Of a stretch of DNA of 64,000 nucleotides, positions 1,792-38,298 are shown piece after piece (within the stretch, counting starts at the first letter, position 1; every line of letters starts with the position of its first letter). This DNA is from an uncultured Clostridia bacterium (GTDB lineage Bacteria; Acidobacteriota; Aminicenantia; JBFLYD01; JBBIMS01), in NCBI GenBank assembly GCA_964649495.1, contig CAZYPR010000007.1, forward strand, positions 7,330 to 71,329, given 5' to 3'. The notes below the pieces were generated by a model that saw only the letters and a list, made by a program, of their open reading frames with translations, was not told the DNA's origin and did no database searches. Both the position numbers and the translations under genes were made by a program.

Positions 1792-1820
1792 TTCAAAATT
1801 TTTTTTAAAGGTTGTATTAT
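1792..1820 (+). promoter_or_regulatory. sigma70-type promoter of fen (leaderless geometry)
   Basis: TTCAAA(1792-97)-17 nt-TATTAT(1815-20), ATG 6 nt downstream, no SD. Confidence 0.5.
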
Positions 1821-1826
1821 TTTATC

Positions 1827-2822
1827 ATGGGTGTAAATCTTACTCCTATTATTTTAAAAAAAGAGATTGAACTTTCAGAGTTAAGGGATAAAGTGATAGC
1901 GGTTGATGGAAATGGTGAGTTATATCAATTTCTTGCCCTTATAAGAATGCCCGACGGAACACCCCTTCGTGATCCTTATGGTAATATTACATCTCATCTT
2001 GTAGGACTTCTCTATCGAACAACAAGATTGATAGGTGAATATGGAATAAAACTTGTATTTGTTTTTGATGGAAAACCTCCAGAACTAAAGGAGAAGGAAC
2101 TTCAAAAAAGAAGGGAATTAAAAGAAAGGTATTTGATGGAGTATGAGATTGCCCTTGCGGAAGGAGATCTCAGGAAAGCTTTTTCAAAGGCAACAATGAC
2201 ATCTCGGCTGACAACTTCAATGATTGAGGATGCCAAAAAGCTTTTATCCCTTCTCGGAATTCCCTATGTTCAAGCGCCTTCTGAGGGTGAAGCTCAGGCA
2301 TCTTACATGGTTAAAAGGGGAGATGCTTGGGCTACAGGAAGTAAAGACTACGACTCCCTACTTTTTGGCACCCCACGTCTTGCAAGATTCATAACCCTTT
2401 CCGGAAAAGAATTTCTTCCGAGCAAGGGAAAATTCAGACCATTAAAACCTGAAATTATAGAAAGGGATGAAATTCTCCAAATTTATGAAATAACTTATGA
2501 ACAGCTCATAGATATATCAATTCTTGTGGGAACAGATTTCAATGAGGGTGTAAAAGGGATAGGTCCAAAGAAGGCTCTCACCTTGATAAAGGAGTATGGT
2601 TGTATTGAAAATTTACCAGATGAGATAAAAGATAAATTGGAAGAATATGAAGAGATAAGGAATATATACCTTCATCCAAATATTACAGACAATTATTCAA
2701 TATCCTATGGAAAGATTGAAGAGAGGGAGCTGATAAAATTTCTTTGTGAGGAAAAGGGTTTTTCCCAGAAAAGGGTGGAGATGGCAATAGAAAGAATGGT
2801 TTCTATGGGGAAACTTTTTTAG
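1827..2822 (+). CDS. fen: Archaeal-type flap endonuclease FEN1
   Basis: MGVNL start, AVDG..LYQFL..IR..DGTPL.D..G.ITSHL.GL.YR, VFDGKPP.LK, APSEGEAQA, S.DYDSLLFG, H3TH GTDFNEGVKGIGPKKAL; FEN1/XPG-type rather than bacterial PolA 5' nuclease domain. Confidence 0.93.
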   Translation: MGVNLTPIILKKEIELSELRDKVIAVDGNGELYQFLALIRMPDGTPLRDPYGNITSHLVGLLYRTTRLIGEYGIKLVFVFDGKPPELKEKELQKRRELKERYLMEYEIALAEGDLRKAFSKATMTSRLTTSMIEDAKKLLSLLGIPYVQAPSEGEAQASYMVKRGDAWATGSKDYDSLLFGTPRLARFITLSGKEFLPSKGKFRPLKPEIIERDEILQIYEITYEQLIDISILVGTDFNEGVKGIGPKKALTLIKEYGCIENLPDEIKDKLEEYEEIRNIYLHPNITDNYSISYGKIEERELIKFLCEEKGFSQKRVEMAIERMVSMGKLF

Positions 2823-6447: not shown

Positions 6448-6639
6448 ATGCCAAAAAAGAGCGGAGAAAAAAAGACCCTTTTAACAGCTGCTAAGATTGC
6501 TGAGCTTCTTGGGGTTTCAAAGGCAGAAGTTCAGAAAACAATAAAGGAGGCAAATCTCAAACCCGATGAGATAAAGTGCGGTTGCTCATATTTTTCTGAG
6601 GAAAGTGTAGAAAAGATAAAAAAACTTCTCAAAAAATAA
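6448..6639 (+). CDS. Small basic HTH-like protein
   Basis: Strong SD; LLTAAKIAELLGVSKAEVQKTIKE resembles a winged-HTH (MerR/excisionase-like) fold; KCGCSYF in the wing region. Confidence 0.7.
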   Translation: MPKKSGEKKTLLTAAKIAELLGVSKAEVQKTIKEANLKPDEIKCGCSYFSEESVEKIKKLLKK

Positions 6640-6640
6640 C

Positions 6641-7039
6641 TTGTTTACATATTTGCTAATTCTTCATCTTGAAAGATGTTTTTGTTTAAAAATAAAAAAG
6701 AAGTATAGAAAATTCAAAAGAGGATTTTATGTTTATGTGGGTAGTGGGAAAAGATACGGATTTCAAAGGATAATAAGACATTTAAAAAGATCTAAAAAAC
6801 TTAGGTGGCACATCGATTATCTACTTGAGAAAGGAAAAATTGAAAGGATATTGATAATTCTTGGGGAAGGAACAAATGAATGCCAGTTAAGCAGTATTCT
6901 TAATGAAAAAGGGATTGTTCTAATGAAAAAATTTGGCTCTTCGGATTGTAAATGTCTATCCCATCTTTTTTATTTTAAAAATAATCCCTATAGAATAATT
7001 GAATATTCAGTAATTCAATCAATTTCAAAAATTTATTGA
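6641..7039 (+). CDS. GIY-YIG (Uri superfamily, DUF123-type) endonuclease
   Basis: YLLILHL...YVYVGSG...RIIRHL...KKLRWHIDYLL...ECQL...FGSSDCKCLSHLFY. Confidence 0.85.
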   Translation: MFTYLLILHLERCFCLKIKKKYRKFKRGFYVYVGSGKRYGFQRIIRHLKRSKKLRWHIDYLLEKGKIERILIILGEGTNECQLSSILNEKGIVLMKKFGSSDCKCLSHLFYFKNNPYRIIEYSVIQSISKIY

Positions 7040-7755: not shown

Positions 7756-8850
7756 TTATAATTTTATAGGTGCAACAACATATATATAATTTATTTCTAA
7801 ATCCTCTGGTTTTATAAGAACGGGCTTTTCAAAATCCATAATTTCAAATCTTACTTTTTCGCATTGCAGTGAATTCAAAAAATCGACAATGAAAGATGAA
7901 TTGAAAATTATTTCTATGGGTTCTCCTTTATATTCAATTTCTATTTGATCAAGAGCTTCCCCAATTTCAGGATTGAAGGCTCTCATCTGTAAAATATTTT
8001 TCTGGAAAATAAATTTAATGGCTCTTCCCTTCTCAGTTGCAAGAATAGAAACTCTCTTTATTGAATCCCTCAGCTCTTCTCTATTTAAAATTGCTATATT
8101 CATATTTTGAGATGGGATTGCGCTTCTCCATGGTGGGAACCTTGTATCCAATTTCCTGGAAATAAGAAGTCTTCCACCAGTTTCGAAATACAAATTATTA
8201 ACATCGTGGGTAAATTTAAATGATTCGCTCTCTATTTTGCTCAATTCACTTAAAAATTTTTTAGGAAGAATTACCTCAAATTCTTCACTAACATTGAATT
8301 TTCCAGACTCTTTTGTATAAGAAAGTCTATTACCATCTGTTGCAACCATCTCAATAAATGATGGTGAAATCCTTAAAAGAGCTCCTCCAAAGCTAAAATG
8401 AGTCTCTTGGGTTAAAATATAGTCAACTCTTTCTATTAATGTATTTAATAAATTTTGAGGAATATCAAAAAATTTTTCAGAGAAAGGAACTGGTATTTCT
8501 GGAAAATCATCTGGAGGTGAACCAAATAAAATGAATTGAGTTGAATCACCTTTTATCCAGGTTTTTCCTTCTTCCTCCTTAGAAATTTCTATATCTACAC
8601 CTTCTTTGAATGACTTAATTATATCAAAAACTTTTTTGCCAGGAAGAGCAATTTTCCCTTCTGAAATCATATTAACTGGTAGACTCACTCTTATACTAAC
8701 TTCAAGGTCAGTAGCATACATATTTAATTGATGATTTTCACACTCAAAAAGAATTGATGAAAGTATTGGCATGGTATTTCTCTTTTCCACAATTCCTTGA
8801 AGTAAGGAAAGTTCTTTAACTATCAAATCTTTCTTCACTGTAAATTTCAT
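7756..8850 (-). CDS. dnaN: DNA polymerase III beta sliding clamp
   Basis: KRNTMPILS, ATDLEV, VATDGNRLS, FPPWR, FNSSFIVDFL, YVVAPIKL; directly downstream of dnaA. Confidence 0.96.
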   Translation of the reverse strand: MKFTVKKDLIVKELSLLQGIVEKRNTMPILSSILFECENHQLNMYATDLEVSIRVSLPVNMISEGKIALPGKKVFDIIKSFKEGVDIEISKEEEGKTWIKGDSTQFILFGSPPDDFPEIPVPFSEKFFDIPQNLLNTLIERVDYILTQETHFSFGGALLRISPSFIEMVATDGNRLSYTKESGKFNVSEEFEVILPKKFLSELSKIESESFKFTHDVNNLYFETGGRLLISRKLDTRFPPWRSAIPSQNMNIAILNREELRDSIKRVSILATEKGRAIKFIFQKNILQMRAFNPEIGEALDQIEIEYKGEPIEIIFNSSFIVDFLNSLQCEKVRFEIMDFEKPVLIKPEDLEINYIYVVAPIKL

Positions 8851-8997: not shown

Positions 8998-10299
8998 TTA
9001 ACCATATCTGAAAAAGTTTATATAACTTGTAATTAATTTGTCAAATTCTTCATCTTTTTTCCTCAAATCTCCGATTTTTTGAATTGAATAAAGAATTGTA
9101 GTATGATGCTTATTCCCAAATTCTTTTCCAATCTCAGATAAAGACAAATTTGTAAGTTCTTTAAGTAAATACATTGCAACCTGTCTTGGAAAAGCAATTT
9201 TTGGAGAGTTGTTTTTTGATTTTAAATCAACTATTTTAATGTTGAATTTCTCTGCTACAAATTTCATTATCATATCGGCAGAGACTTCCTTATCAACAAA
9301 GTCAAGAATGTCTTTTAGAGCCTCCTTCGTCAGTGCAAGATCAATATTTGTGTTTTTCAAAGATGCATAAGCTTTTAACCTTGTTAGCGCACCTTCGAGT
9401 TGTCGGATGTCAGATTTTACTTTTGAAGCAATAAACAAGGCAATATTATGGGGTAGAACCATATTATTTTCCTCACATTTTTTGTTGAGAATAGCAAGTT
9501 TTGTCTCAAGATCAGGAGGTTTTAAATCTGCTATAAGCCCCCACTCAAACCTTGAATGGAGTCTTTCTTCCAGATTTGGAATATACTTGGGATGACAATC
9601 AGATGTAATAACAATTTGTTTTTGAGCTTCGTAAAGATAATTAAATGTGTGGAAAAATTCCTCTTTTGTTCTTTCCTTTCCAGTTAAAAACTGTATGTCA
9701 TCGATCAAAAGAACATCTACTTCCCTGTATTTTTTTCTAAACTCAATTATTTTTCCATAACGGAGATGATGAATAAAATCATTCATAAAGTTTTCAGTTG
9801 TAACATATAGGACAAGGACATTCGATGATTTTGAATATATGTAATTTCCTATTGCATTCATAAGATGGGTCTTTCCCAGACCACTTCCACCATAAATGAA
9901 AAGAGGGTTGTAAGCTTTTCCAGGAGAATTTGCAACCGCTATAGATGCAGCATGAGCAAACTGATTACAGGAGCCTACAACAAAGGAATTAAATGTATAT
10001 CTTGAGTTAAGGTTTGTTTTTTGATAACTATCTGGAGATATTGTTGGAGTGTCTGAAAACTCCTCCTCTTGATAAATATATTTGACTTTTAAATTTTCGC
10101 CAGCAACTTTTTTTAAAATTAACCTTAGTCTCTCTCCCAATTTATTTTCAAGGGCTTCTTTAAAAAATCTATTGGGAACCTTAAGATAAATCGTTTCCTC
10201 ATCCCTTCCAATAAACTTTATCGGCGAAACCCATGTCTCGTAGGAATCATCTTCAATTTCGTTTTTAAGTAGGTCAAGAAATTTTTCCCAAAAACCCAT
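8998..10299 (-). CDS. dnaA: Chromosomal replication initiator DnaA
   Basis: YTFNSFVVG, YNPLFIYGGSGLGKTHL, LLIDDIQF, RLHSRFEWGL, IRQLEGAL, FPRQVAMYL, KHHTT; start placed at ATG 10299 (MGFWEKF) after GAGGGG, leaving DnaA boxes upstream. Confidence 0.97.
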   Translation of the reverse strand: MGFWEKFLDLLKNEIEDDSYETWVSPIKFIGRDEETIYLKVPNRFFKEALENKLGERLRLILKKVAGENLKVKYIYQEEEFSDTPTISPDSYQKTNLNSRYTFNSFVVGSCNQFAHAASIAVANSPGKAYNPLFIYGGSGLGKTHLMNAIGNYIYSKSSNVLVLYVTTENFMNDFIHHLRYGKIIEFRKKYREVDVLLIDDIQFLTGKERTKEEFFHTFNYLYEAQKQIVITSDCHPKYIPNLEERLHSRFEWGLIADLKPPDLETKLAILNKKCEENNMVLPHNIALFIASKVKSDIRQLEGALTRLKAYASLKNTNIDLALTKEALKDILDFVDKEVSADMIMKFVAEKFNIKIVDLKSKNNSPKIAFPRQVAMYLLKELTNLSLSEIGKEFGNKHHTTILYSIQKIGDLRKKDEEFDKLITSYINFFRYG

Positions 10300-10311
10300 T
10301 GAACCCCTCGA

Positions 10312-10345
10312 GATTTCCACAGAAATTTTCACAACTGTGGAAATC
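10312..10345. promoter_or_regulatory. Cluster of three variant DnaA boxes upstream of dnaA
   Basis: ATTTCCACA 10313-21, ATTTTCACA 10325-33 and TGTGGAAAT 10336-44; the outer two form an 11-bp inverted repeat GATTTCCACAG/CTGTGGAAATC. Confidence 0.65.
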
Positions 10346-10407
10346 TTTAAACATTTTCTATTTGGAAAAAAAATATACTAAACCTAAAATTTTTTAATTT
10401 CAAGTCC

Positions 10408-13293
10408 TCAAAAATCAAACCCAATCCAGATTCTTGTGCGAGTAGTGCCAGTGTATTTAAAATCAGTGGGTTTAACAAAATCTATGTGAACAGGGTAGCC
10501 AAAAATGAATATCTGAAGCCCCCATCCATAACTGGCTATTCCATCTATTAGCTGTATTCCATCCTCTTTGGAAACGAATTTATAAGGGAACCCTTTAACC
10601 TTCCAACTTGCTATATCAAAGAATAAAGTTCCCCTTAAAGGTCCAAGGTTAATAAATGATGGAAGATTTTTAAAGATAGGGAATCTAAACTCTGCGTTAA
10701 AGAAGAAACCTTGATTACCTATAAGGGTTCCATAATATACAGAACGAACCTGATTGTCCCCACCAAAATAGAAAAGATAAGGATCTTTTCCAGTACTGGA
10801 GAAGGCATCGAGTCTGAAGGCGAAAAGGGTTTCCGCCCCAACTCTTATGTATTTCCTTAAATCTGCTTCTAAGGTTGTGCTGGAGAGGAAATTGGAACCA
10901 AGGGGTAGAGCCTGGGAAACAGTGAATTTAAATGTTGACCCAGCAATTGGTCCAAAATACTTGAATCTTGTGGTCTCTCCCACTATAGAAGCAGAAACAT
11001 TAATAAGATTTCCGTTCCAGGCATAGGGAAAGTAATCTTCGAAATAAGGGTCAAGGTATCTGAACTTGTCTCTGTAATAATAGTATCCCAGACTTGCTTC
11101 AATACGATAGAATCTGTTTAGAGGATAAATACCAAAAGCATCGATTCCAAGTATTTCCCTCACTCTTATAGCATCCTGCCAAGTGGCATAGTAGTAGAGT
11201 TCGGGATAGAAATAGTAATAATCTGGATAGTAAAATAATGCAAAGTCAAATCCTCTTACCATGAACTGAAATCTGTTTTTCTGGTTAATATATCCGAGGA
11301 ATATAGACCTTAAATCACTTATTGAGAGAGCATCGAGATAGAATATGTGGTCTTCAAAAATGTCTGTTAAAGCAATAGATGTTCCCCCATAAATCGTTCC
11401 GTCAGTATAGATACCCGCACTAATCGGGGGTCTTGCCATCAAGAAAAGTTTTCCAATTCCTTTGTGTTGCTGTATTTTCTTATCGTCAACCGCCAACCTC
11501 CATTTGGAGGAAACAACTCCCTCAACTTTAACCTCTTCTTTCTCTTTTTTAGTAATTTCCTCGGGAGTGTTATCTTTTACTTCAAGGGGAGTTTTGAATT
11601 CTTTTCTGTAGAGGTTAAAATAACCCTTGTGGAAGGAGGAGAAGAACACAGTTTCTGGAGAATCTGGAAGGGGATTGGGGAAGAAATTACCTGTTCTAAC
11701 ATCAGTGTATCTTATCAGCTTGTTCTCCTTTAAATCAATAGCATAGATGTTGAAGGCTCCATTTTCATCAGAGCAGAAGTAAAGAGATTTCCCATCTTTT
11801 GTAAAGGATGGAGTTATATCATTTCCCTTGGTAAATGTGGCCTGTCTTCTTAAAGAAAGATCTTTGCTATCCGCAATAAAAATTTTATCCTTTCCATTTA
11901 TTACCACTGAAAAAGCTATCAATTTTCCATCGGGAGAGAAGGAGAGGGATTTCTCTCTTAGGTTATCATTGGTAAGGCGTTTAAATTTTTTGCTTTCAAT
12001 TTCCACGGAAAATATATCCCATTTTCCATCGCTGTAAGCTGTAAAAAGAATCTCTTTTCCATCAGGAGAGAAAACAGGTGAGGAGGGTTGGACATATGGA
12101 ATTTCAACTTTAAAAGTTTCTTTCCCCTCTATTGCGTCAATGGTAAAAAGATAGGTTTTATGACCCTTGTTGGCAAAGAAGGCGAGATTCTCGCCCTTTG
12201 AATCCCAGGAAATATCCTTACCATAAGAGGGATCGAAATTGGCTGATATATACTCATAACGGGATGTATAACCCTTTGTAAGATTTTTGATTATACTTCC
12301 ATCCTTTACAGAAAGTAAAAGAATATCTATGTCTTCATCCTTCATGTTGGCTGTAAGTATGGCAACAATCTCTCCTGAAGGAGAGAGTTCATGGGAGATA
12401 TCGTAGGCAAAGGGAAGTTCAGGACCAATTTTCACAGAGTAGTCCTCAGGGTTTTCCTTTGTAAAATATTCCTTAAATCTCTCCCTCATGAATTTCTTGA
12501 ACTCATAGTTGAACTCCTTTGAGCTCATTTTAAATGTCTGTTTAAAGGGGATGTTCTTGGCAAAGATTGATGCCTTTTTAGCTTCCCATAGAATCTGCCT
12601 TATCCCACTCTTTCCATATTTTGCATCTACAAAGTCAAAAATTGCATGGCCAAAATCATAGGGGGCCCGTGAGTAGGAAGAGCGAAAATCTCCACTTTCA
12701 TCGAGTTCAGGAATAATATCGTTTAAAGTAGCATCCCTTACTATCATAAGGCTAATAGGAGACCAATTTCCTGTGGCATATTCAGCAAGCCCTTCCATTA
12801 TCCATAGCGGAGGCTCCTTTATATTGTAAGTCCCTCCTTTTATATCTCCATATAAAATAGAATACTCAAAAATGTGGGTGAGCTCGTGAGTTACAAGATA
12901 GTACAATTCTTCATCAGGTATATTGGTGGGGAGGACTATCCTGTGAAGAATAGGTTCTGCAAAGGCAAGGATTCCCTCAGGCATTATCCCAGGGAAGAGA
13001 TTTGTTTGCTGAAAATCTCTCTGGTTGTCGTAGACTATTAAAGGAGTTTTTTCCTTTATGTCATGGAGAAAGAGGGACTGAAGTTTTTTGTATGCATCCT
13101 CTGCAATTCCCGCTATTAGCTCAAGTCTTTCCCTTTCAGCACCGTAAAAGTATATCTCAAAATGCTCTGTCTGATATGATTTCCAGTCGAATTTTTTTGT
13201 TATTATTTTGTTTTTTCCATGGTAAGGGAATTGGGAAAAGATTAAATTTGAAATTGTTAAAATCGAAAAAAATACAAAAAATATCTTTTTCAT
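10408..13293 (-). CDS. Omp85/BamA-family protein with N-terminal zincin-like peptidase domain and TolB-like PD40 beta-propeller
   Basis: Signal peptide; HELTH plus WIMEGLAEY; repeated P.FSPDG repeats; C-terminal barrel with GGDNQVRSV (VRGF/Y-like), NAEFRFP, and terminal IWIGFDF. Confidence 0.85.
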   Translation of the reverse strand: MKKIFFVFFSILTISNLIFSQFPYHGKNKIITKKFDWKSYQTEHFEIYFYGAERERLELIAGIAEDAYKKLQSLFLHDIKEKTPLIVYDNQRDFQQTNLFPGIMPEGILAFAEPILHRIVLPTNIPDEELYYLVTHELTHIFEYSILYGDIKGGTYNIKEPPLWIMEGLAEYATGNWSPISLMIVRDATLNDIIPELDESGDFRSSYSRAPYDFGHAIFDFVDAKYGKSGIRQILWEAKKASIFAKNIPFKQTFKMSSKEFNYEFKKFMRERFKEYFTKENPEDYSVKIGPELPFAYDISHELSPSGEIVAILTANMKDEDIDILLLSVKDGSIIKNLTKGYTSRYEYISANFDPSYGKDISWDSKGENLAFFANKGHKTYLFTIDAIEGKETFKVEIPYVQPSSPVFSPDGKEILFTAYSDGKWDIFSVEIESKKFKRLTNDNLREKSLSFSPDGKLIAFSVVINGKDKIFIADSKDLSLRRQATFTKGNDITPSFTKDGKSLYFCSDENGAFNIYAIDLKENKLIRYTDVRTGNFFPNPLPDSPETVFFSSFHKGYFNLYRKEFKTPLEVKDNTPEEITKKEKEEVKVEGVVSSKWRLAVDDKKIQQHKGIGKLFLMARPPISAGIYTDGTIYGGTSIALTDIFEDHIFYLDALSISDLRSIFLGYINQKNRFQFMVRGFDFALFYYPDYYYFYPELYYYATWQDAIRVREILGIDAFGIYPLNRFYRIEASLGYYYYRDKFRYLDPYFEDYFPYAWNGNLINVSASIVGETTRFKYFGPIAGSTFKFTVSQALPLGSNFLSSTTLEADLRKYIRVGAETLFAFRLDAFSSTGKDPYLFYFGGDNQVRSVYYGTLIGNQGFFFNAEFRFPIFKNLPSFINLGPLRGTLFFDIASWKVKGFPYKFVSKEDGIQLIDGIASYGWGLQIFIFGYPVHIDFVKPTDFKYTGTTRTRIWIGFDF

Positions 13294-13303
13294 ATCTCCC
13301 CCT

Positions 13304-13936
13304 TTATTGAATTATGTATCGTTCTTCTTCAATTTTTTTCTGGAATAAATCTTTCAGGTATTTATTCGAAATTCTTTGCATTATATCCATAAAGCCTCTC
13401 TCAATAGGTGCGTCAGGATCCTCATAACCTTTTTCCTCTTTGAATGTCTTTGATGATATTATAGAGCCATTGGAAGAGTCTATGAGAAAAATTTTTATAT
13501 TGAAAATGAAGAATTTCATTGGAACTATTCTTCTTCCAGGGAATGTTACATAAGGAGAGCCTTCCTGAACTACATTCCTCTTCTCTTCCTTAATTTCTGC
13601 TGTTCCAGTTATTATTAGATTTCTTCCTTCCTCCATGATGGACTTCCAAAACTCAGAATCTCCAAATATTTTATCTCCATTCTCAAATTTTATTTCTTTA
13701 TAATTGGCATTCATGGAGAGAGAGGCTCTGAAGTCATTTAAAAGAAAATTTGCTATCTCCTTTCCTGCGGAGAATTCACCTGGAGCTTCTCTCACAAAAA
13801 AGTTGGTCACAATAACCTCGTTAAAATCAGATATTTTAACTATGGATTCAACAGGTATCTCTATTTTTACCTTTATGGGCTCTGAACAGGAGAAAAACAA
13901 AATTATAAAGCCACTAAAAACAATTATTTTTTTCAT
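13304..13936 (-). CDS. Putative lipoprotein
   Basis: Internal ATG 13936 gives MKKIIVFSGFIILFFSC with lipobox-like FFSC. Confidence 0.65.
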   Translation of the reverse strand: MKKIIVFSGFIILFFSCSEPIKVKIEIPVESIVKISDFNEVIVTNFFVREAPGEFSAGKEIANFLLNDFRASLSMNANYKEIKFENGDKIFGDSEFWKSIMEEGRNLIITGTAEIKEEKRNVVQEGSPYVTFPGRRIVPMKFFIFNIKIFLIDSSNGSIISSKTFKEEKGYEDPDAPIERGFMDIMQRISNKYLKDLFQKKIEEERYIIQ

Positions 13937-13938
13937 TC

Positions 13939-14283
13939 TCACTTTTTCTCCTTTGTTTTTTCCAATATAGCAAGGCAAGACTCATAGTTCTTTTTCACAT
14001 AAATGTTATCTTTGGAATATTGAAGAGAAATTTGGTAAAGATTGAGAGCTTCGCTGAACATCCCCTCTCTTTCATAGGCTACAGCAAGGTTGTTATAAGC
14101 TTTCCAGTTGGTTGGATCAAGCTCTATTGCCCTTTTCCATCTGTAAATTGCTTCTTTCCATAGTCCTTTCTGGGAGGCTAAAATTCCAAATTTCAAGTTT
14201 TTTTCTGCAACCAATCTTTTATCTGATGAAATTAGAGTCTGAGCCAAGAGGAGAATTAATAAAAGGGAAATTAACTTCTTCAC
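13939..14283 (-). CDS. Exported TPR protein
   Basis: GTG 14283 gives signal-like VKKLISLLLILLLAQTLIS; TPR motifs GLWKEAIYRWKRAIELDP..WKAYNNLAVAYEREG. Confidence 0.8.
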   Translation of the reverse strand: MKKLISLLLILLLAQTLISSDKRLVAEKNLKFGILASQKGLWKEAIYRWKRAIELDPTNWKAYNNLAVAYEREGMFSEALNLYQISLQYSKDNIYVKKNYESCLAILEKTKEKK

Positions 14284-32676: not shown

Positions 32677-35600
32677 GTGTTTAATTTGAAAAGATTTTTA
32701 ATTTTTGTTTTGTTCTTTCAGTTTATTTATCATTCCCTTCATTCTGAAGAGCTTGAAGTTACTGTTGTTCCAAAGGGAGTTATAGAAAGATTGGACATTG
32801 TAAGCGAGATTTCCATTACCTTTAGTAAGCCAATGGTTCCAATTGGAGAAATAAAAAAAGAGTTTTTGCCTGATTTTGTGACAATCAATCCACCTGTAAA
32901 AGGGAAGTTCTATTGGGCGGGAGATAGAATATTAATTTTCCATCCTGAAGAAAGATTACCATACTCAACATTGTTCGAAATAAAGATAAAAAAAGGAATA
33001 AAGAGTGTCACAGGTGAGGTTTTAAATAAAGAATTTGTCTCAACTTTTGAAACGCCAACTCCCACTGTCGTCCGAACCATTCCATATCAGGGTTCAACCA
33101 TTGGTAGGAAAGAGGATATTCTTATTTTTTTTAACCAACCTGTTTCCCTTGAAGAGGTCCGTTCAAAAGTAAAGTTAAATATATATCCCTCCTTTTACAC
33201 TGTTCCAGAAGGTTTCCAAACACATTCAACCGAGGCAATGGGAAAATTGAGGAGTGTTAGAGAGATTTTGTCTTCCAAGAAAACAATCTCCTTAGATGTG
33301 GAGGCTGAATATGATCCTGGTTCAGTAAATAAGGTTCGTTTAAAACCTGTTTTGCCCATACCTTTAAATTCCCTCATAAAAATTTTAATACCAAAAGGTT
33401 TCAGAGGTAAGGAAGGTAATTTAGGCTCAAAAAAGGATTATGAGATAAGCTTCCAGACACCCAAGACCCTACTCTACGGTGGGATTTCTTGCTTTGATTG
33501 TAATCCCTATTCAACTGTTTCCATAATATTTTCTAATCCAATTTTCCCTGAGGAAGCAAAAAAGGGAATAAAAGTCTTTGACTTAACAGAAAATAAGGAA
33601 GTTGAGGTAAAGAAAGAGGGTTATGAATATTGGAGGGGATATAGCAGTAACAATGTTTATATTTCTGATTTGTTTAATTTAAAAGCGGGTCATTCTTACA
33701 AGTTGGAAGTTCAAAGGAATCTAAAGGATGCATATGGACTAAACTTGAATTACCTTGTGTCAGAATATTTTTCCTTAAAGAGCTACCCCTATTCAATTGA
33801 ACTCATTAACAGATGGGGAGTTATAGAGTCCAAAGGTCCAAAATATCTATCTCTGAGGGTTGTAAATGTAGATTCAGTTTTAAGGGAGATAAAGGAGATT
33901 GATGATAATGAAATAGGAAAATTCCTTTCTTATCTTAACACTCGAAAAGGAATAATTTTGAAGCCCACCTCTCCTGAGGTAAGGTTTAAAACGGAAAAGG
34001 ACAGGTTCACAATCGTTAACATGGATGTTGGTAAAATATTGGGGAAGGAATCAGCGATTATATACACAGAGATCTCTGCTAAGGATGTAAAGCAGGGAAC
34101 CGATTATGAAAGAGAGCCGAGTTTTGTAAATGGTATTCTCCAGATAACAGATATAGGTATCTCCCTCAAATATTCACCTCAAAACATTCTAATCTATACA
34201 ACATTTCTTTCCAGTGGAGAACCTATTTCCAACTGTGAGATAAAAGTATTGAATATGAAGGGAGAACTTCTCTGGAAAGGAGAGACTGACGAAAATGGAA
34301 TCTGTCTTGGACCTGGGACAGAAGATCTGGGAATAAAGGATGATTGGGAAACGAATTTTATTGTTGTGGCAAAGAAAGATAATGATAGAGCATTTGTCAC
34401 AGAGGAGTGGAGTGATGGAATTGAAGGGTGGCAGTTTAATTTAAGAACAGATTGGGAGCCAAGCAAGAGAAGGGTTATGGGATATTTATTTACAGACAGG
34501 GGGGCTTATCGACCTGGGGAGGATGTTTATTTAAAGGGAATATTCCGTGTTGATGAACTGAAAAACTTAACAATTCCAGAGGGAAAAGAGATAGAATTTA
34601 AGATTTACGATTCAAGAAACAAAGAATTTCTAACAAAGAAGGTTTTCCTAAACAACTATGGTTCAACCTCTTTTTCATTTAAAATCCCTGAAGATTCTCC
34701 TACTGGATATTATAGAATCGAGGCGAAAGCCCCAAAAGAGCTAAAAATAGAGGATAGGGATAGATTGTTCTCCTATTCAATTCTTATATCTGAGTTCAGG
34801 AAGCCTGACTTTAGAGTGGATGTCTCTGTCAAAAAGAAGGATTATCTTCCTGATGAAAAAATAGAGGGTTTAATAAAAGGAACCTACCTCTACGGTGCAC
34901 CCATGAAGGATTGCAAGGTTAAATGGACTCTGAGAAAGTCTCCAACATCATTCTCTCCTCCTTTAAAAGGAGAACTCTCTTCAAAGTATTATGTTTTTGA
35001 AGATTGGACAGAGGAGGAAGATGAGTATTATGGAAGTGAGGTTGTAGCAAGTGGAGAAGGGGTTTTATCAAAAGATGGAGAATATATTGTTGAAGAAAAG
35101 CTTTCGCACAGCAAAAAACCGATGGGTTATCTTCTTGAGGGAGAGGTTACAGATATAACAGAGCAAGCTATATCCAATAGAGTATCCTTTCTCCTTCACC
35201 CTTCTGACTATTATGTAGGGATTGAGTATAAATCATATTTTGTGGATAAAGGGAAGACCTTAAAGACAACAGTTGTTGCCCTTGATAAGGATGGAAATTT
35301 TGTAAAGGGAAGACCGATAAAATTAGAGCTCATAAAAAGAGAATGGCACTCTGTTCAGGAGAAGGAAGAAGGAACATATTACAGATACAGAAGTGAGCCT
35401 GTTGATACAACAGTGAAAACTTTGGACCTGACAAGTTCCGACATTCCATTGGAGGTAGAATTTGTCCTTGATAGTGTGGGATATTATATTTTGAAAGCAT
35501 CCTCAAAAGATGGCAAAGGTCATATCCAAACTTCAGGATTCGGATTTTACTGCATAGGTGAAGGGTTTACAGCATGGGAAAGATATGACCACAACAGAAT

Positions 35601-38298
35601 TGATATTGTCCCTGAGAAAAAAGAGTTAAAGCCGGGAGAGGTCGCAAGAATTCTTGTTAAATCTCCATGGCAAGAAGCAAGAGGGATTTTGACAGTTGAA
35701 AGGAGTGGAATTATAGAGTATTTTCCAGTATTCCTTAAAGGCTCTAATCAGGTATTAGAGATTCCAATAAAAAAAGAGTATATACCCACAATTTATGTTT
35801 CGGTTCTCCTTGTTAAAGGAAGAACCTCTGAGAAACTGGAAGAGGGGGTTGATGTTGGGAAACCATCTTTCAGGCTGGGATACTCAAAGATAGATGTTTT
35901 ACCTGATGAGATTTATTTAAAACTGGAAATAAATACTGAAAAGGAGGAATTTAGACCGAGAGAAAGAGTAAAGGTAAATATTAAGGTGAGGGATTTTGAA
36001 GGTAGAGGGAGAAAGGCGGAGGTCACCCTTTATGCTGTTGATTATGGGGTGCTATCCCTCACTGGATACAAGCTCCCAGACCCGATTTTGTATTTTTACA
36101 AAGATAGATTTTTGGGAGTAAGGAACTCAGAGCTCAGGAATGTTCTCATAAGCAGAGAATATTTAAAAGGAAAACTTGCAGAGTCAGCTGGAGGGGGAGG
36201 AGTTGAGGAATCTTTATTCCAGATAAGAACTGATTTCAGAATAACCCCATTCTGGAAAGGGGAGGTAATTACCGATGAGAATGGATTTGCAGAAGAGTCC
36301 TTTGAATTGCCCGATTCCCTTACCTCCTTTGTTATAATGGCTGTAGCTCAGACCCTTGACTCCCGGTTCGGCTCCACCAAAAGGGAGATAAGGGTTTCAA
36401 AACCATTGATGCTATTTCCGTCCCTTCCAAGATTCCTGATCACAGGAGACAAATTCGAAGGAGGTATAAGGGTTCAGAATAATACAAAGGAGAAGGGAGA
36501 ATTATCTATAAAGGTCAGAGCCCTTTCATCAAATTTGAAGATTTTAAAAGATGAGGAAAAGATAACTTTATCTCCTGAAGGCTCTCATCTCTTTAGATTT
36601 CCAATGGAAGCTTTATCCCATGGTCTCTCCAGGCTTCAATTCTTTGCTACATTTAAGAGCCCTTCAAAAGAAGAAAGAGATGCTGTGGAAGTGAAAATCC
36701 CTGTAAAGATTCCAAAACTAAGAGTAGATTCTGCAAGTTATGGTAGCACAGATGGGAAAGAAACCATAAATATTTCAGTTCCCGAGAATATTTATACTGA
36801 TGCGGGAGGTCTCAGGATATCCCTCTCTTCATCTGCCCTTTCTGGTTTAGAAAAAAGTGCGGAATTCCTTCTTGAATACCCTTATGGTTGTACTGAACAA
36901 CTTTCTTCAATGCTTACTCCCTTTATTGCCCTCCAAAATCTTTCGGGAGCATTCAAATTCAAAAATATTGATAAAAAAGAGATGGAAAGGATCGTTTGTG
37001 AAACCCTTTTAAAAATTTATAAGAATCAGAGGGAAGATGGTGGATTCGGTTTCTGGAGCGATTCTCCAACATCATACCCTTATGTCTCTTCCTATGTTCT
37101 TTTCATTTTCAAAATGGCTGAAGAAAGGGGATTTCAGATTGACAAAAGTGTAAAAGAAAAACTTATCGAGTATCTAAAAAATGTTCTCAAAGGAAAGATA
37201 AGAACTGACCTGATAACAAAAACCTTTGCCCTTTATACCCTTTCCCTTTATGGAAGCCATGATGAAAGCTACCAAACCCTTATATATGAAAAAAGGGATT
37301 CTCTTCCATTATTCTCAAAGGCTTTTCTACTCTCTTCAATTTCAAGGACAAAGAAAAGCTCTACCATGAAGAGCACTCTTTTGAATGAGATTATGAACAG
37401 GGTGAGAGTTGAACCTGCGGAAGCTCACTTTGAAGAGGGGAGATTCGAAGGCTCAGGAATTTATATGCACTCAAACCTGCGAACAAACGCCATAATTCTT
37501 CTTTCCCTTCTTGATGCTGATCCCAGCTCTCCAATTATTGAGAAACTTGTATCATACATTCTTGGAAAAAGAGAAAATGGTGCATGGATGAACACCCAAG
37601 AGAATTCTTATGCGCTTCTGAGTCTTAGTGAGTATTTCCTGAAAAAGGAAAGCAAAGAGATCAATTTTAATTTCAACGGAAAAATCGATGGAAAAAAACT
37701 TCCCACAATAAAATTTGCTGAAATCAAGAAAGAAGTTATAAATATTGCCATGGAAGAAATTTTAAGTCTTGGCAGGGCTCTAACTCTCACTTTTGAGAAA
37801 TCAGGTAAAGGGAAATTATACTGGATTTCTAATTTATCGTTCTATCCAAATGGTATAGATTTTCCAGAGTTTAATCAGGGATTTTCTATTCAAAGAATTT
37901 ATGAAGATTTAAATACAGGTGAGAAAAAAACAACTTTTAAGCTTGGAGATTTAATCAGGGTTAGAATAAAAATAAATGTTAGTGCAGAGAGAAACTATGT
38001 GGCAGTAGTTGATCCGATACCTGCGGGAGCAGAAATAGAGGACTCATATCTAAAAACGACAAGCCTTGAAAATCAGAGAAAATTGGGAAAAATTTCATGG
38101 TATTTTAATCATGTGGAGAAATACGATGACAGGATGCAAGTTTTTGCAGATGTCCTTCCTCAGGGAGAACACGAGTTTTCATATATTATAAGACTAACAA
38201 CAAAGGGAACATTCCTTGTTCCTTCAGCAAAAGCTGAAGAAATGTATAATCCTGAAGTATTCGGAACAACAAAGGGAGAGATTGTAAGAGTTGAGTAG
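32677..38298 (+). CDS. Bacterial alpha-2-macroglobulin with N-terminal Ig-like (Big_5) domains
   Basis: FTDRGAYRPGE, EFRKPDF, AVDYGVL, RTDF..TPFW, LPDSLT, thioester YPYGCTEQ, QREDGGF, PAG.E, AEEMY.PEVFG. Confidence 0.93.
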   Translation: MFNLKRFLIFVLFFQFIYHSLHSEELEVTVVPKGVIERLDIVSEISITFSKPMVPIGEIKKEFLPDFVTINPPVKGKFYWAGDRILIFHPEERLPYSTLFEIKIKKGIKSVTGEVLNKEFVSTFETPTPTVVRTIPYQGSTIGRKEDILIFFNQPVSLEEVRSKVKLNIYPSFYTVPEGFQTHSTEAMGKLRSVREILSSKKTISLDVEAEYDPGSVNKVRLKPVLPIPLNSLIKILIPKGFRGKEGNLGSKKDYEISFQTPKTLLYGGISCFDCNPYSTVSIIFSNPIFPEEAKKGIKVFDLTENKEVEVKKEGYEYWRGYSSNNVYISDLFNLKAGHSYKLEVQRNLKDAYGLNLNYLVSEYFSLKSYPYSIELINRWGVIESKGPKYLSLRVVNVDSVLREIKEIDDNEIGKFLSYLNTRKGIILKPTSPEVRFKTEKDRFTIVNMDVGKILGKESAIIYTEISAKDVKQGTDYEREPSFVNGILQITDIGISLKYSPQNILIYTTFLSSGEPISNCEIKVLNMKGELLWKGETDENGICLGPGTEDLGIKDDWETNFIVVAKKDNDRAFVTEEWSDGIEGWQFNLRTDWEPSKRRVMGYLFTDRGAYRPGEDVYLKGIFRVDELKNLTIPEGKEIEFKIYDSRNKEFLTKKVFLNNYGSTSFSFKIPEDSPTGYYRIEAKAPKELKIEDRDRLFSYSILISEFRKPDFRVDVSVKKKDYLPDEKIEGLIKGTYLYGAPMKDCKVKWTLRKSPTSFSPPLKGELSSKYYVFEDWTEEEDEYYGSEVVASGEGVLSKDGEYIVEEKLSHSKKPMGYLLEGEVTDITEQAISNRVSFLLHPSDYYVGIEYKSYFVDKGKTLKTTVVALDKDGNFVKGRPIKLELIKREWHSVQEKEEGTYYRYRSEPVDTTVKTLDLTSSDIPLEVEFVLDSVGYYILKASSKDGKGHIQTSGFGFYCIGEGFTAWERYDHNRIDIVPEKKELKPGEVARILVKSPWQEARGILTVERSGIIEYFPVFLKGSNQVLEIPIKKEYIPTIYVSVLLVKGRTSEKLEEGVDVGKPSFRLGYSKIDVLPDEIYLKLEINTEKEEFRPRERVKVNIKVRDFEGRGRKAEVTLYAVDYGVLSLTGYKLPDPILYFYKDRFLGVRNSELRNVLISREYLKGKLAESAGGGGVEESLFQIRTDFRITPFWKGEVITDENGFAEESFELPDSLTSFVIMAVAQTLDSRFGSTKREIRVSKPLMLFPSLPRFLITGDKFEGGIRVQNNTKEKGELSIKVRALSSNLKILKDEEKITLSPEGSHLFRFPMEALSHGLSRLQFFATFKSPSKEERDAVEVKIPVKIPKLRVDSASYGSTDGKETINISVPENIYTDAGGLRISLSSSALSGLEKSAEFLLEYPYGCTEQLSSMLTPFIALQNLSGAFKFKNIDKKEMERIVCETLLKIYKNQREDGGFGFWSDSPTSYPYVSSYVLFIFKMAEERGFQIDKSVKEKLIEYLKNVLKGKIRTDLITKTFALYTLSLYGSHDESYQTLIYEKRDSLPLFSKAFLLSSISRTKKSSTMKSTLLNEIMNRVRVEPAEAHFEEGRFEGSGIYMHSNLRTNAIILLSLLDADPSSPIIEKLVSYILGKRENGAWMNTQENSYALLSLSEYFLKKESKEINFNFNGKIDGKKLPTIKFAEIKKEVINIAMEEILSLGRALTLTFEKSGKGKLYWISNLSFYPNGIDFPEFNQGFSIQRIYEDLNTGEKKTTFKLGDLIRVRIKINVSAERNYVAVVDPIPAGAEIEDSYLKTTSLENQRKLGKISWYFNHVEKYDDRMQVFADVLPQGEHEFSYIIRLTTKGTFLVPSAKAEEMYNPEVFGTTKGEIVRVE

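Follow-up and report, generated by a model that had tools for sequence, protein, structure and literature searches.

The 64-kb window analysed here (the whole 64,000-nucleotide stretch of contig CAZYPR010000007.1, numbered from its first letter) encodes at positions 1827..2822 on the forward strand an archaeal-type flap endonuclease 1 (FEN1) of 331 amino acids plus stop codon, which lacks the C-terminal PCNA-interacting peptide (PIP) box. The textbook division of 5'-flap processing assigns the task to PolA-type nucleases in bacteria and to PCNA-bound FEN1 in archaea and eukaryotes. The host of the window gene is a bacterium, and the gene is one member of a large PIP-less bacterial branch of FEN1 that we found described in no paper within the literature searched. 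We regard it as probable, from the comparison of sequences and gene neighbourhoods, that the protein is an accessory, clamp-independent 5' nuclease, acquired from archaea and serving repair rather than replacing PolA.

The open reading frame extends from 1812 to 2822 (+), and the ATG at 1827 gives a 331-residue protein that begins with MGVNLTPI, as its homologues do. The protein matches the Pfam families XPG_N (PF00752) and XPG_I (PF00867) with 63 and 84 bits, respectively, and the NCBIfam equivalog model of archaeal FEN1, TIGR03674 (fen_arch), with 430 bits over residues 1–326 (cut-off 352). In contrast, the models of PolA, Xni and stand-alone 5'-3' exonucleases score 22–35 bits against cut-offs of 261–720, and only through the helix-3-turn-helix (H3TH) part; the Pfam scan gave no match to 5_3_exonuc_N (PF02739) in the protein. 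Because the bacterial 5' nuclease models stay far below their cut-offs, a PolA/ExoIX-type identity was ruled out. The solved structures closest in sequence are archaeal FEN1s, with E values of 4e-96 to 9e-91.

The translation retains all seven catalytic carboxylates, which span 1905..2537 (+): D27 (1905-1907), D81 (2067-2069), E153 (2283-2285), E155 (2289-2291), D174 (2346-2348), D176 (2352-2354) and D237 (2535-2537). Five of them (D27, E153, E155, D174 and D237) do not vary in an alignment of 70 bacterial and archaeal sequences, and conservation of D81 and D176 is at least 90%. The helical arch, or gateway, comprises residues 86–123 (2082..2195, +) and consists of helices 86–112 and 115–123 in the AlphaFold2 model. 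Its residues K88 and R95, the counterparts of K93 and R100 in the human enzyme, are present in the window protein and invariant in the alignments. The DNA-binding H3TH motif, GVKGIGPKKALTLIKEY, occupies residues 241–257 (2547..2597, +) within a Pfam 5_3_exonuc SAM-fold match to residues 223–272, and its G244, G246 and P247 are invariant among the 70 sequences.

The AlphaFold2 model, which was calculated from a 70-sequence alignment, has a mean predicted local distance difference test score (pLDDT) of 91.9 and a predicted template modelling score of 0.89. In Foldseek it superimposes on the DNA-bound FEN-1 of A. fulgidus (1rxv_A) with template modelling scores of 0.89/0.96 and a root-mean-square deviation of 1.5 Å, and the top matches are all FEN1, followed by Rad2/XPG. 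By every catalytic and structural criterion tried, sequence and model place the protein in the XPG/Rad2-type, archaeal FEN1 family, and its enzymatic identity as a flap endonuclease is close to certain. The preliminary description of this gene, made from the letters alone, had claimed an archaeal-type FEN1 with a full FEN1/XPG motif set and intact acidic residues, which agrees with these results; a grouping with the bacterial PolA/ExoIX nucleases, which it had named as contrary evidence, is not seen.

The window protein has many bacterial relatives. A search with it returned nine clusters at 80–87% identity, whose contig labels include one Aminicenantes and one "uncultured Clostridia"; such labels, here and below, are taken from the records of metagenome-assembled genomes and can be wrong. 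Further matches at 60–68% identity are forms of 327–337 residues, interspersed with PIP-bearing sequences of 341–356 residues, and the closest PIP-bearing sequences, at 60–65% identity, are labelled Bathyarchaeia, Bathyarchaeales or Bathyarchaeota. With a profile of 22 short forms, 120 proteins were retrieved, all but one of them 320–343 residues long, with Terriglobia, Brocadia and Loosdrechtia among the named matches. One FEN1 cluster holds a UniRef entry assigned to Desulfobacca acetoxidans, and the contigs are up to 645 kb in length. A scan of metagenomes yielded at least 586 relatives, PIP-bearing and PIP-less combined, and the non-redundant PIP-less sequences number at least 134, in Acidobacteriota, Brocadiales and Desulfobacca. 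Many members are already annotated as "flap endonuclease-1" by the NCBI and JGI pipelines. A survey of the PIN-like superfamily in 2017 contained only two bacterial XPG_I proteins (PMC5499597), and no paper on archaeal-type FEN1 in bacteria was found in the literature searched, which leaves most subscription journals outside it.

Neighbour-joining on corrected p-distances, which was used for all FEN1 trees, placed 124 of 124 PIP-less sequences, the window protein included, in one clade of a tree of 310 FEN1 cores. Its sister group consists of 92 sequences with a PIP box; nearly all of those with a label are assigned to Bathyarchaeia, Bathyarchaeales or Bathyarchaeota. The PIP-less clade is marked by G30, E31 and Y102, three residues that no fewer than 90% of its members share and that no more than 1% of the other sequences have. 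The clade is divided into two subclades, each of which is stable in the neighbour-joining bootstrap; the first holds the window, Desulfobacca-like and Brocadia-like sequences, and the second the Terriglobia-like ones. In our reading, a donor resembling Bathyarchaeia passed the gene to bacteria once, in ancient times, and it then spread among them. What favours a single origin is the topology of the full tree, together with the three diagnostic residues and the tail loss that all members share, and not branch support.

The GC content of the window gene (0.371) and of its third codon positions (0.292) lies inside the range of the host genes. Its ratio of nonsynonymous to synonymous substitution rates (dN/dS) is 0.05–0.075 against the orthologues at loci L001 and L002, with synonymous sites saturated. 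Because of this strong purifying selection and the host-like base composition, the transfer is old, and on the sequence evidence the gene is a long-standing part of its lineage, held by selection. Acquisition of the gene by a bacterium from archaea, as had been proposed, is supported by the Bathyarchaeia sequences as nearest PIP-bearing kin and sister group, but a lone recent transfer is not, since the window gene is one member of a large and old bacterial group.

The C-terminus of the window protein (AIERMVSMGKLF) reads ERMVSMGKLF, and no PIP box of the pattern Q..[LIM]..[FWY][FWY] was found. PIP-bearing relatives run about 20 residues further, through ..K.FYS...Q..L..WF, so the missing PIP tail noticed in the preliminary description corresponds to the loss of this Q..L..WF extension. 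The PIP pattern is a criterion of recruitment and not a definition of the catalytic family. The last codons, G328-K-L-F331 (2808..2819, +), mark the site at which, judging from the AlphaFold2 model and the tail counts, archaeal FEN1 continues into the PIP box; the last helix of the model spans residues 314–328, and K-L-F alone lies beyond it, with low pLDDT. As a side observation, the last six FEN1 codons and the stop codon (the SMGKLF tail, 2803-2822) share 20 nt with the 3' end of the hydantoinase B gene, which is convergent, and the FEN1 and hydantoinase B genes of L001 have no overlap.

A possible function is indicated by the neighbours of FEN1 in relatives, for which Pfam-annotated gene tables cover about a dozen bacterial contexts and metagenome loci were screened with a small custom query set. 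In the Desulfobacca-like subclade adjacent to that of the window in the tree (P0016, P0022, P0033 and P0090), a three-domain Lig1-type ATP ligase of 554–557 amino acids is encoded directly upstream of FEN1 in all four cases, at distances from a 4-nt overlap to a gap of 61 nt. With the dnl1 superfamily model, whose cut-off is 218, the ligase reaches 345 bits. A Hel308-type helicase gene follows FEN1 in three of the four contexts (PRK02362, 837 bits, just below the cut-off of 887). In the gene tables, the co-directional ligase-FEN1-Hel308 clusters are located at L011:8340-13983, L018:835-7305, L021:76-5090 and L013:5253-7929. The L018 cluster is preceded by genes for a nuclease of the ExoIII type (Exo_endo_phos) and for a NUDIX protein, and L011 has a PolX gene 4 kb away (536 bits, cut-off 426). 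A 5-formyltetrahydrofolate cyclo-ligase gene is sometimes found in the cluster, and the protein cluster of one member is labelled Desulfobacca acetoxidans.

An apurinic/apyrimidinic (AP) endonuclease, a polymerase that fills the gap, a flap endonuclease and a ligase together carry out long-patch excision repair in archaea and eukaryotes. In the reconstituted archaeal Mth212 pathway, the endonuclease is of the ExoIII type and acts with a polymerase, a 5' flap endonuclease and a ligase (PMC8307549). The ligase-FEN1-Hel308 cluster thus looks like an archaeal-style long-patch repair module in bacteria, and this operon, together with the AP endonuclease or PolX nearby, points to repair. Outside this subclade, one Terriglobia contig has genes for a LigC-like ligase and a LigD-type Prim-Pol 1–3 kb from FEN1, and L012 has a LigD_N (PE-domain) gene 1.5 kb upstream. 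Ligase linkage was not seen in the available flanks of Terriglobia-type metagenome loci, many of which are on short contigs.

Two side observations concern archaeal-type genes on other contigs. In five metagenome loci (L075, L080, L096, L097 and L099) with a PIP or PIP-like FEN1, which are presumably archaeal, a Lig1-type ligase gene lies 4–36 nt downstream of FEN1, the reverse of the bacterial order with the ligase upstream; because these loci are also linked, the association of FEN1 with a ligase would exist on both sides of the domain boundary. At L016:1-1050, 7 kb from a Terriglobia-type FEN1, a 684-amino-acid protein with HATPase_c and Topo-VIb transducer domains is encoded, possibly a further DNA enzyme of archaeal type on a contig that looks bacterial.

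The reading that we favour is as follows. An ancestor of several bacterial lineages would have gained FEN1 long ago from an archaeon close to Bathyarchaeia, and the C-terminal linker and PIP box, about 20 residues, would have been lost thereafter because bacteria have no PCNA. We infer a clamp-independent enzyme with an accessory role, a structure-specific 5'-flap endonuclease and 5'-3' exonuclease that serves excision or gap repair, possibly with a backup function in the maturation of Okazaki fragments. The PolA 5' nuclease would not be replaced, and the 5-kb spacing to dnaN would be a coincidence of local gene order.

Several points weigh against this reading. With respect to the single transfer, the stem of the PIP-less clade is short, and the union of the two bacterial subclades receives about 21% neighbour-joining bootstrap on thinned data; two separate transfers from closely related donors are the alternative. 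With respect to repair, no ligase, helicase or polymerase gene was found beside FEN1 in the window or its close relatives, and none near FEN1 in L012, L015, L016, L017 or the short-form metagenome loci, so that the repair role of the window protein would be carried over from relatives to which it is about 62–65% identical. Most of the Terriglobia-type and Brocadia contexts likewise lack repair genes near FEN1. The genes upstream of FEN1 are nadC, nadA and nadB in L001, and a TMEM260-like gene and a gene without assignment in L022. With respect to clamp independence, a C-terminal tail ending in Leu-Phe (LF) recurs among the bacterial proteins and suggests some bound partner, which a strictly stand-alone model does not explain.

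A terminal LF of this class is present in 42 of the 134 non-redundant PIP-less sequences (31%). In 31 of the 42, L[FW] forms the very end, and in the other 11, one or two residues come after [LM][FW]. In an earlier set of 124 sequences, 29 tails had the motif, whereas 2000 rounds of tail shuffling gave 2.7 on average and 8 at most, and the LF tails of that set are spread over 9 of 36 sequence clusters and both deep subclades; shared ancestry inflates these counts. Typical examples are RAFRERTLF, RAFPQRSLF, RAFGQTTLF, SSSQGESRLF, GSGPRGLF and GSGGKLF, and the window's own subclade contributes SMGKLF, STGKLFS, SPTLF and SKKLLF. Across the bacterial group, the LF thus exceeds chance, against the caution in the preliminary description that it might be accidental. 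Conservation of the LF among bacterial homologues, which had been proposed as a check, gave a divided result: the motif recurs in 31%, but about 69% of the bacterial FEN1s have no LF-type motif, including the Brocadia-like sequences, all four ligase-linked members (P0016, P0022, P0033 and P0090) and five of the ten nearest relatives of the window protein, which end in GSL, SSL, GSLWNL or KIL. In part of the family, some selection probably acts on a short LF-ending C-terminal motif.

The obvious candidate for the partner is the beta clamp, a minority possibility for which the window tail is a poor match. On this explanation, the PIP box was replaced by an LF-ending peptide that docks in the hydrophobic cleft of DnaN, and FEN1 would be recruited to clamps left at Okazaki junctions or repair patches, in the way archaeal FEN1 is recruited to PCNA. 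Three positions of the clamp-binding motif Q-phi-x-L-F, namely 1, 4 and 5, are critical; the Leu and Phe (L4 and F5) insert into subsite I of the clamp, and the Gln (Q1) into subsite II (bioRxiv 10.64898/2026.05.27.728225). The endings ERTLF, QRSLF, QTTLF, ESRLF and GKLF match L4 and F5, and the motif stands where the lost PIP box was. However, the window tail, M-G-K-L-F, fits at positions 4–5 only, with no Gln at position 1, as had been pointed out before, and a Gly at the aliphatic position 2. Position −5 of the 31 tails ending in L[FW] is Gln in just 3 and Glu in 10. The large share of motif-free members stated above also counts against the clamp, as do the three residues past the last helix of the AlphaFold2 model, which give little reach, and a dnaN adjacency that is not conserved (see below). 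On balance, we consider a FEN1 tethered to the beta clamp unlikely. Slightly fainter still is the chance that the PIP box was converted, and not just lost, on the move from archaea to bacteria, with a minimal LF tail (ERTLF, QRSLF or GKLF) binding the beta clamp. If this were true, the bacterial FEN1s would be a natural case of a clamp client re-wired from PCNA to DnaN, and the ligase-FEN1-Hel308 operons would represent an archaeal-style toolkit for Okazaki-fragment maturation and long-patch repair on a bacterial clamp.

The position of FEN1 near dnaN had been noted as about 5 kb; dnaN is located at 7756..8850 (−), 4.9 kb downstream of FEN1, and dnaA at 8998..10332 (−). As a functional signal, this nearness fares poorly. 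It is restricted to the very close relatives L001, L007 and L022, which have one local gene order; no dnaN was found in ten other bacterial FEN1 contexts with gene tables, and no DnaN relative in the short-form metagenome loci. A functional linkage of FEN1 and dnaN was therefore ruled out.

Another explanation makes FEN1 the main Okazaki-flap and primer-removal nuclease of the lineage, with polA absent or without its 5'-3' exonuclease domain. FEN1 performs this job in archaea (PMC3914693), and the window gene is under strong purifying selection, with dnaA and dnaN, and so probably the origin, close by. Against this stands L007 (CAZHEF010000001.1, 370 kb), whose DnaA is 92.8% identical to that of the window and whose gene order is the same, but which has a FEN1 pseudogene only (L007:9990-10800). 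The pseudogene has lost the first ~21 codons and has a frameshift after R67, the substitution D174Y and a deletion of ~50 codons over the H3TH motif. Judging from this decay, FEN1 is dispensable in a close relative, and because so near a relative has lost it, FEN1 should not be the sole nuclease for flap and primer removal. Moreover, the relatives of FEN1 above 80% identity form 9 clusters, compared with hundreds of clusters of Aminicenantia DnaA at 54–63% identity, which suggests a gene restricted to a single narrow lineage, with the next FEN1 relatives found in other phyla. It is thus very doubtful that FEN1 replaces the PolA 5' nuclease, as the preliminary description had entertained.

The host is indeed a bacterium. 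Other genes in the window encode DnaA, DnaN, ClpB, FtsK, alanine racemase, a bacterial alpha-2-macroglobulin and proteins of polysaccharide synthesis, and the named top matches of the window DnaA are all Candidatus Aminicenantia/Aminicenantes, Saccharicenans or Acidobacteria(ota). L022, an independently assembled contig of 12 kb, has an identical FEN1 protein and the same neighbours; those common to both are hydantoinase B and A, a 63-amino-acid helix-turn-helix (HTH) protein, DUF123, TetR, dnaN and dnaA. The gene order in L001 and L007 equals that of the window. An archaeal or chimeric contig had been named beforehand as one finding that would speak against a bacterial FEN1. It was ruled out by the bacterial nature of the other genes scanned, the Aminicenantia-like DnaA, the order kept across independent assemblies and the host-like composition.

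Cargo of a defence system or mobile element was also ruled out: PADLOC gave nothing for FEN1 and its neighbours except a weak match to mad1, and the Pfam scan of the window found no integrase or transposase near FEN1. The mad1 match (E 4e-7) falls on the 63-amino-acid HTH protein (6448-6639, +) and probably reflects generic HTH likeness. Although FEN1 is otherwise archaeal and eukaryotic, as the two bacterial proteins of the 2017 survey illustrate, and the bacterial-labelled, PIP-bearing P0060 is probably mis-binned, an artefact or passenger, whether a mis-assembled archaeal fragment or mobile or defence cargo without a chromosomal role, is hardly credible. It is refuted by the gene order common to three to four independent assemblies (the window, L001, L007 and L022) with the same bacterial neighbours, and the host-like composition, the dN/dS and the absence of an integrase, transposase or PADLOC match nearby also speak against it. 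P0060 is a FEN1 protein from a 14.5-kb contig labelled Krumholzibacteriaceae bacterium; it possesses a complete PIP box (QVRLEKWF) and falls among the Bathyarchaeia sequences, and the bacterial label is probably a binning error.

FEN1 is a single gene in the window and probably monocistronic. A consensus scan found a promoter-like site at 1792..1820 (+), TTCAAA and TATTAT separated by a 17-nt spacer, which ends 6 nt before the ATG, and no Shine-Dalgarno sequence was found upstream of the ATG; the FEN1 mRNA may be leaderless. The cumulative GC skew has its minimum at ~12–14 kb, just past dnaA and dnaN (window 8998-14000), and a replication origin probably lies near it, which would make FEN1 origin-proximal. 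The DUF123 (PF01986) gene between the hydantoinase pair and the TetR gene (6641-7039, +) keeps its position in relatives (L001:14824-15222 and L007:14799-15179), and since it is intact in L007 despite the decay of FEN1, a connection between the two is improbable. The gene of the bacterial alpha-2-macroglobulin (1873 amino acids; 32677-38298, +), the largest of the window, is ordinary. No tRNA or Rfam match was found in the 64-kb window.

Transfer of a repair gene is by itself unsurprising; what makes these proteins a lead for comparative genomics is how large and old the group is, together with the ligase-FEN1-Hel308 operon and the recurrent LF tail. FEN1 has crossed the line between the domains, and selection has retained it in several bacterial phyla, in each case without the handle for PCNA; the bacterial proteins may serve as a natural experiment on FEN1 function without a clamp. 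The ligase-FEN1-Hel308 operon and the AP endonuclease or PolX genes close to it may form a long-patch repair module of archaeal style in bacteria. The LF tail, for its part, would allow one to ask directly whether a client of PCNA can be redirected to the beta clamp. In the binning of metagenomes, FEN1 on a contig is an unsafe marker of archaeal origin.

Among known systems, the window protein is closest to archaeal FEN1 (TIGR03674; HAMAP FEN1, archaeal type), represented by the structures 1rxv (A. fulgidus), 1b43 (P. furiosus) and 3ory (D. amylolyticus). It shares with them the XPG_N/XPG_I core, the seven carboxylates, the arch and the H3TH motif, and is 46–50% identical to the solved archaeal enzymes and 60–65% identical to FEN1 of Bathyarchaeia. 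It differs in that its host is a bacterium with DnaN instead of PCNA, that the PIP extension of ~20 residues is absent, and that G30, E31 and Y102 set the bacterial group apart. The short LF-ending tail resembles the beta-clamp motif (QL[SD]LF) of bacterial polymerases and repair proteins in its C-terminal location and its final Leu-Phe, whereas position −5 in the bacterial FEN1s is more often Glu than Gln and the window tail has no Gln.

The relatives' gene clusters can be compared with LigB, LigC, LigD, Prim-Pol, Ku and PolX, which are likewise archaeal/eukaryotic-type repair enzymes scattered patchily among bacteria as accessory modules. FEN1 of the relatives is physically linked to a Lig1-type ligase, a LigC-like ligase, Prim-Pol or PolX; we found no paper in the literature searched that treats FEN1 as part of Ku/LigD/Prim-Pol-type modules in bacteria. 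The order ligase-FEN1-Hel308 corresponds to neither the Ku-LigD nor the LigC-Prim-Pol arrangement. Finally, the PolA-type 5' nucleases (the N-terminal domain of PolA, ExoIX/Xni of E. coli, mycobacterial FenA and YpcP/ExoR of B. subtilis) presumably do the same job, the removal of 5' flaps and RNA primers. They have the distant FEN superfamily fold and the H3TH motif in common with the window protein, the H3TH being the sole cross-match, but belong to another family, which carries 5_3_exonuc_N.

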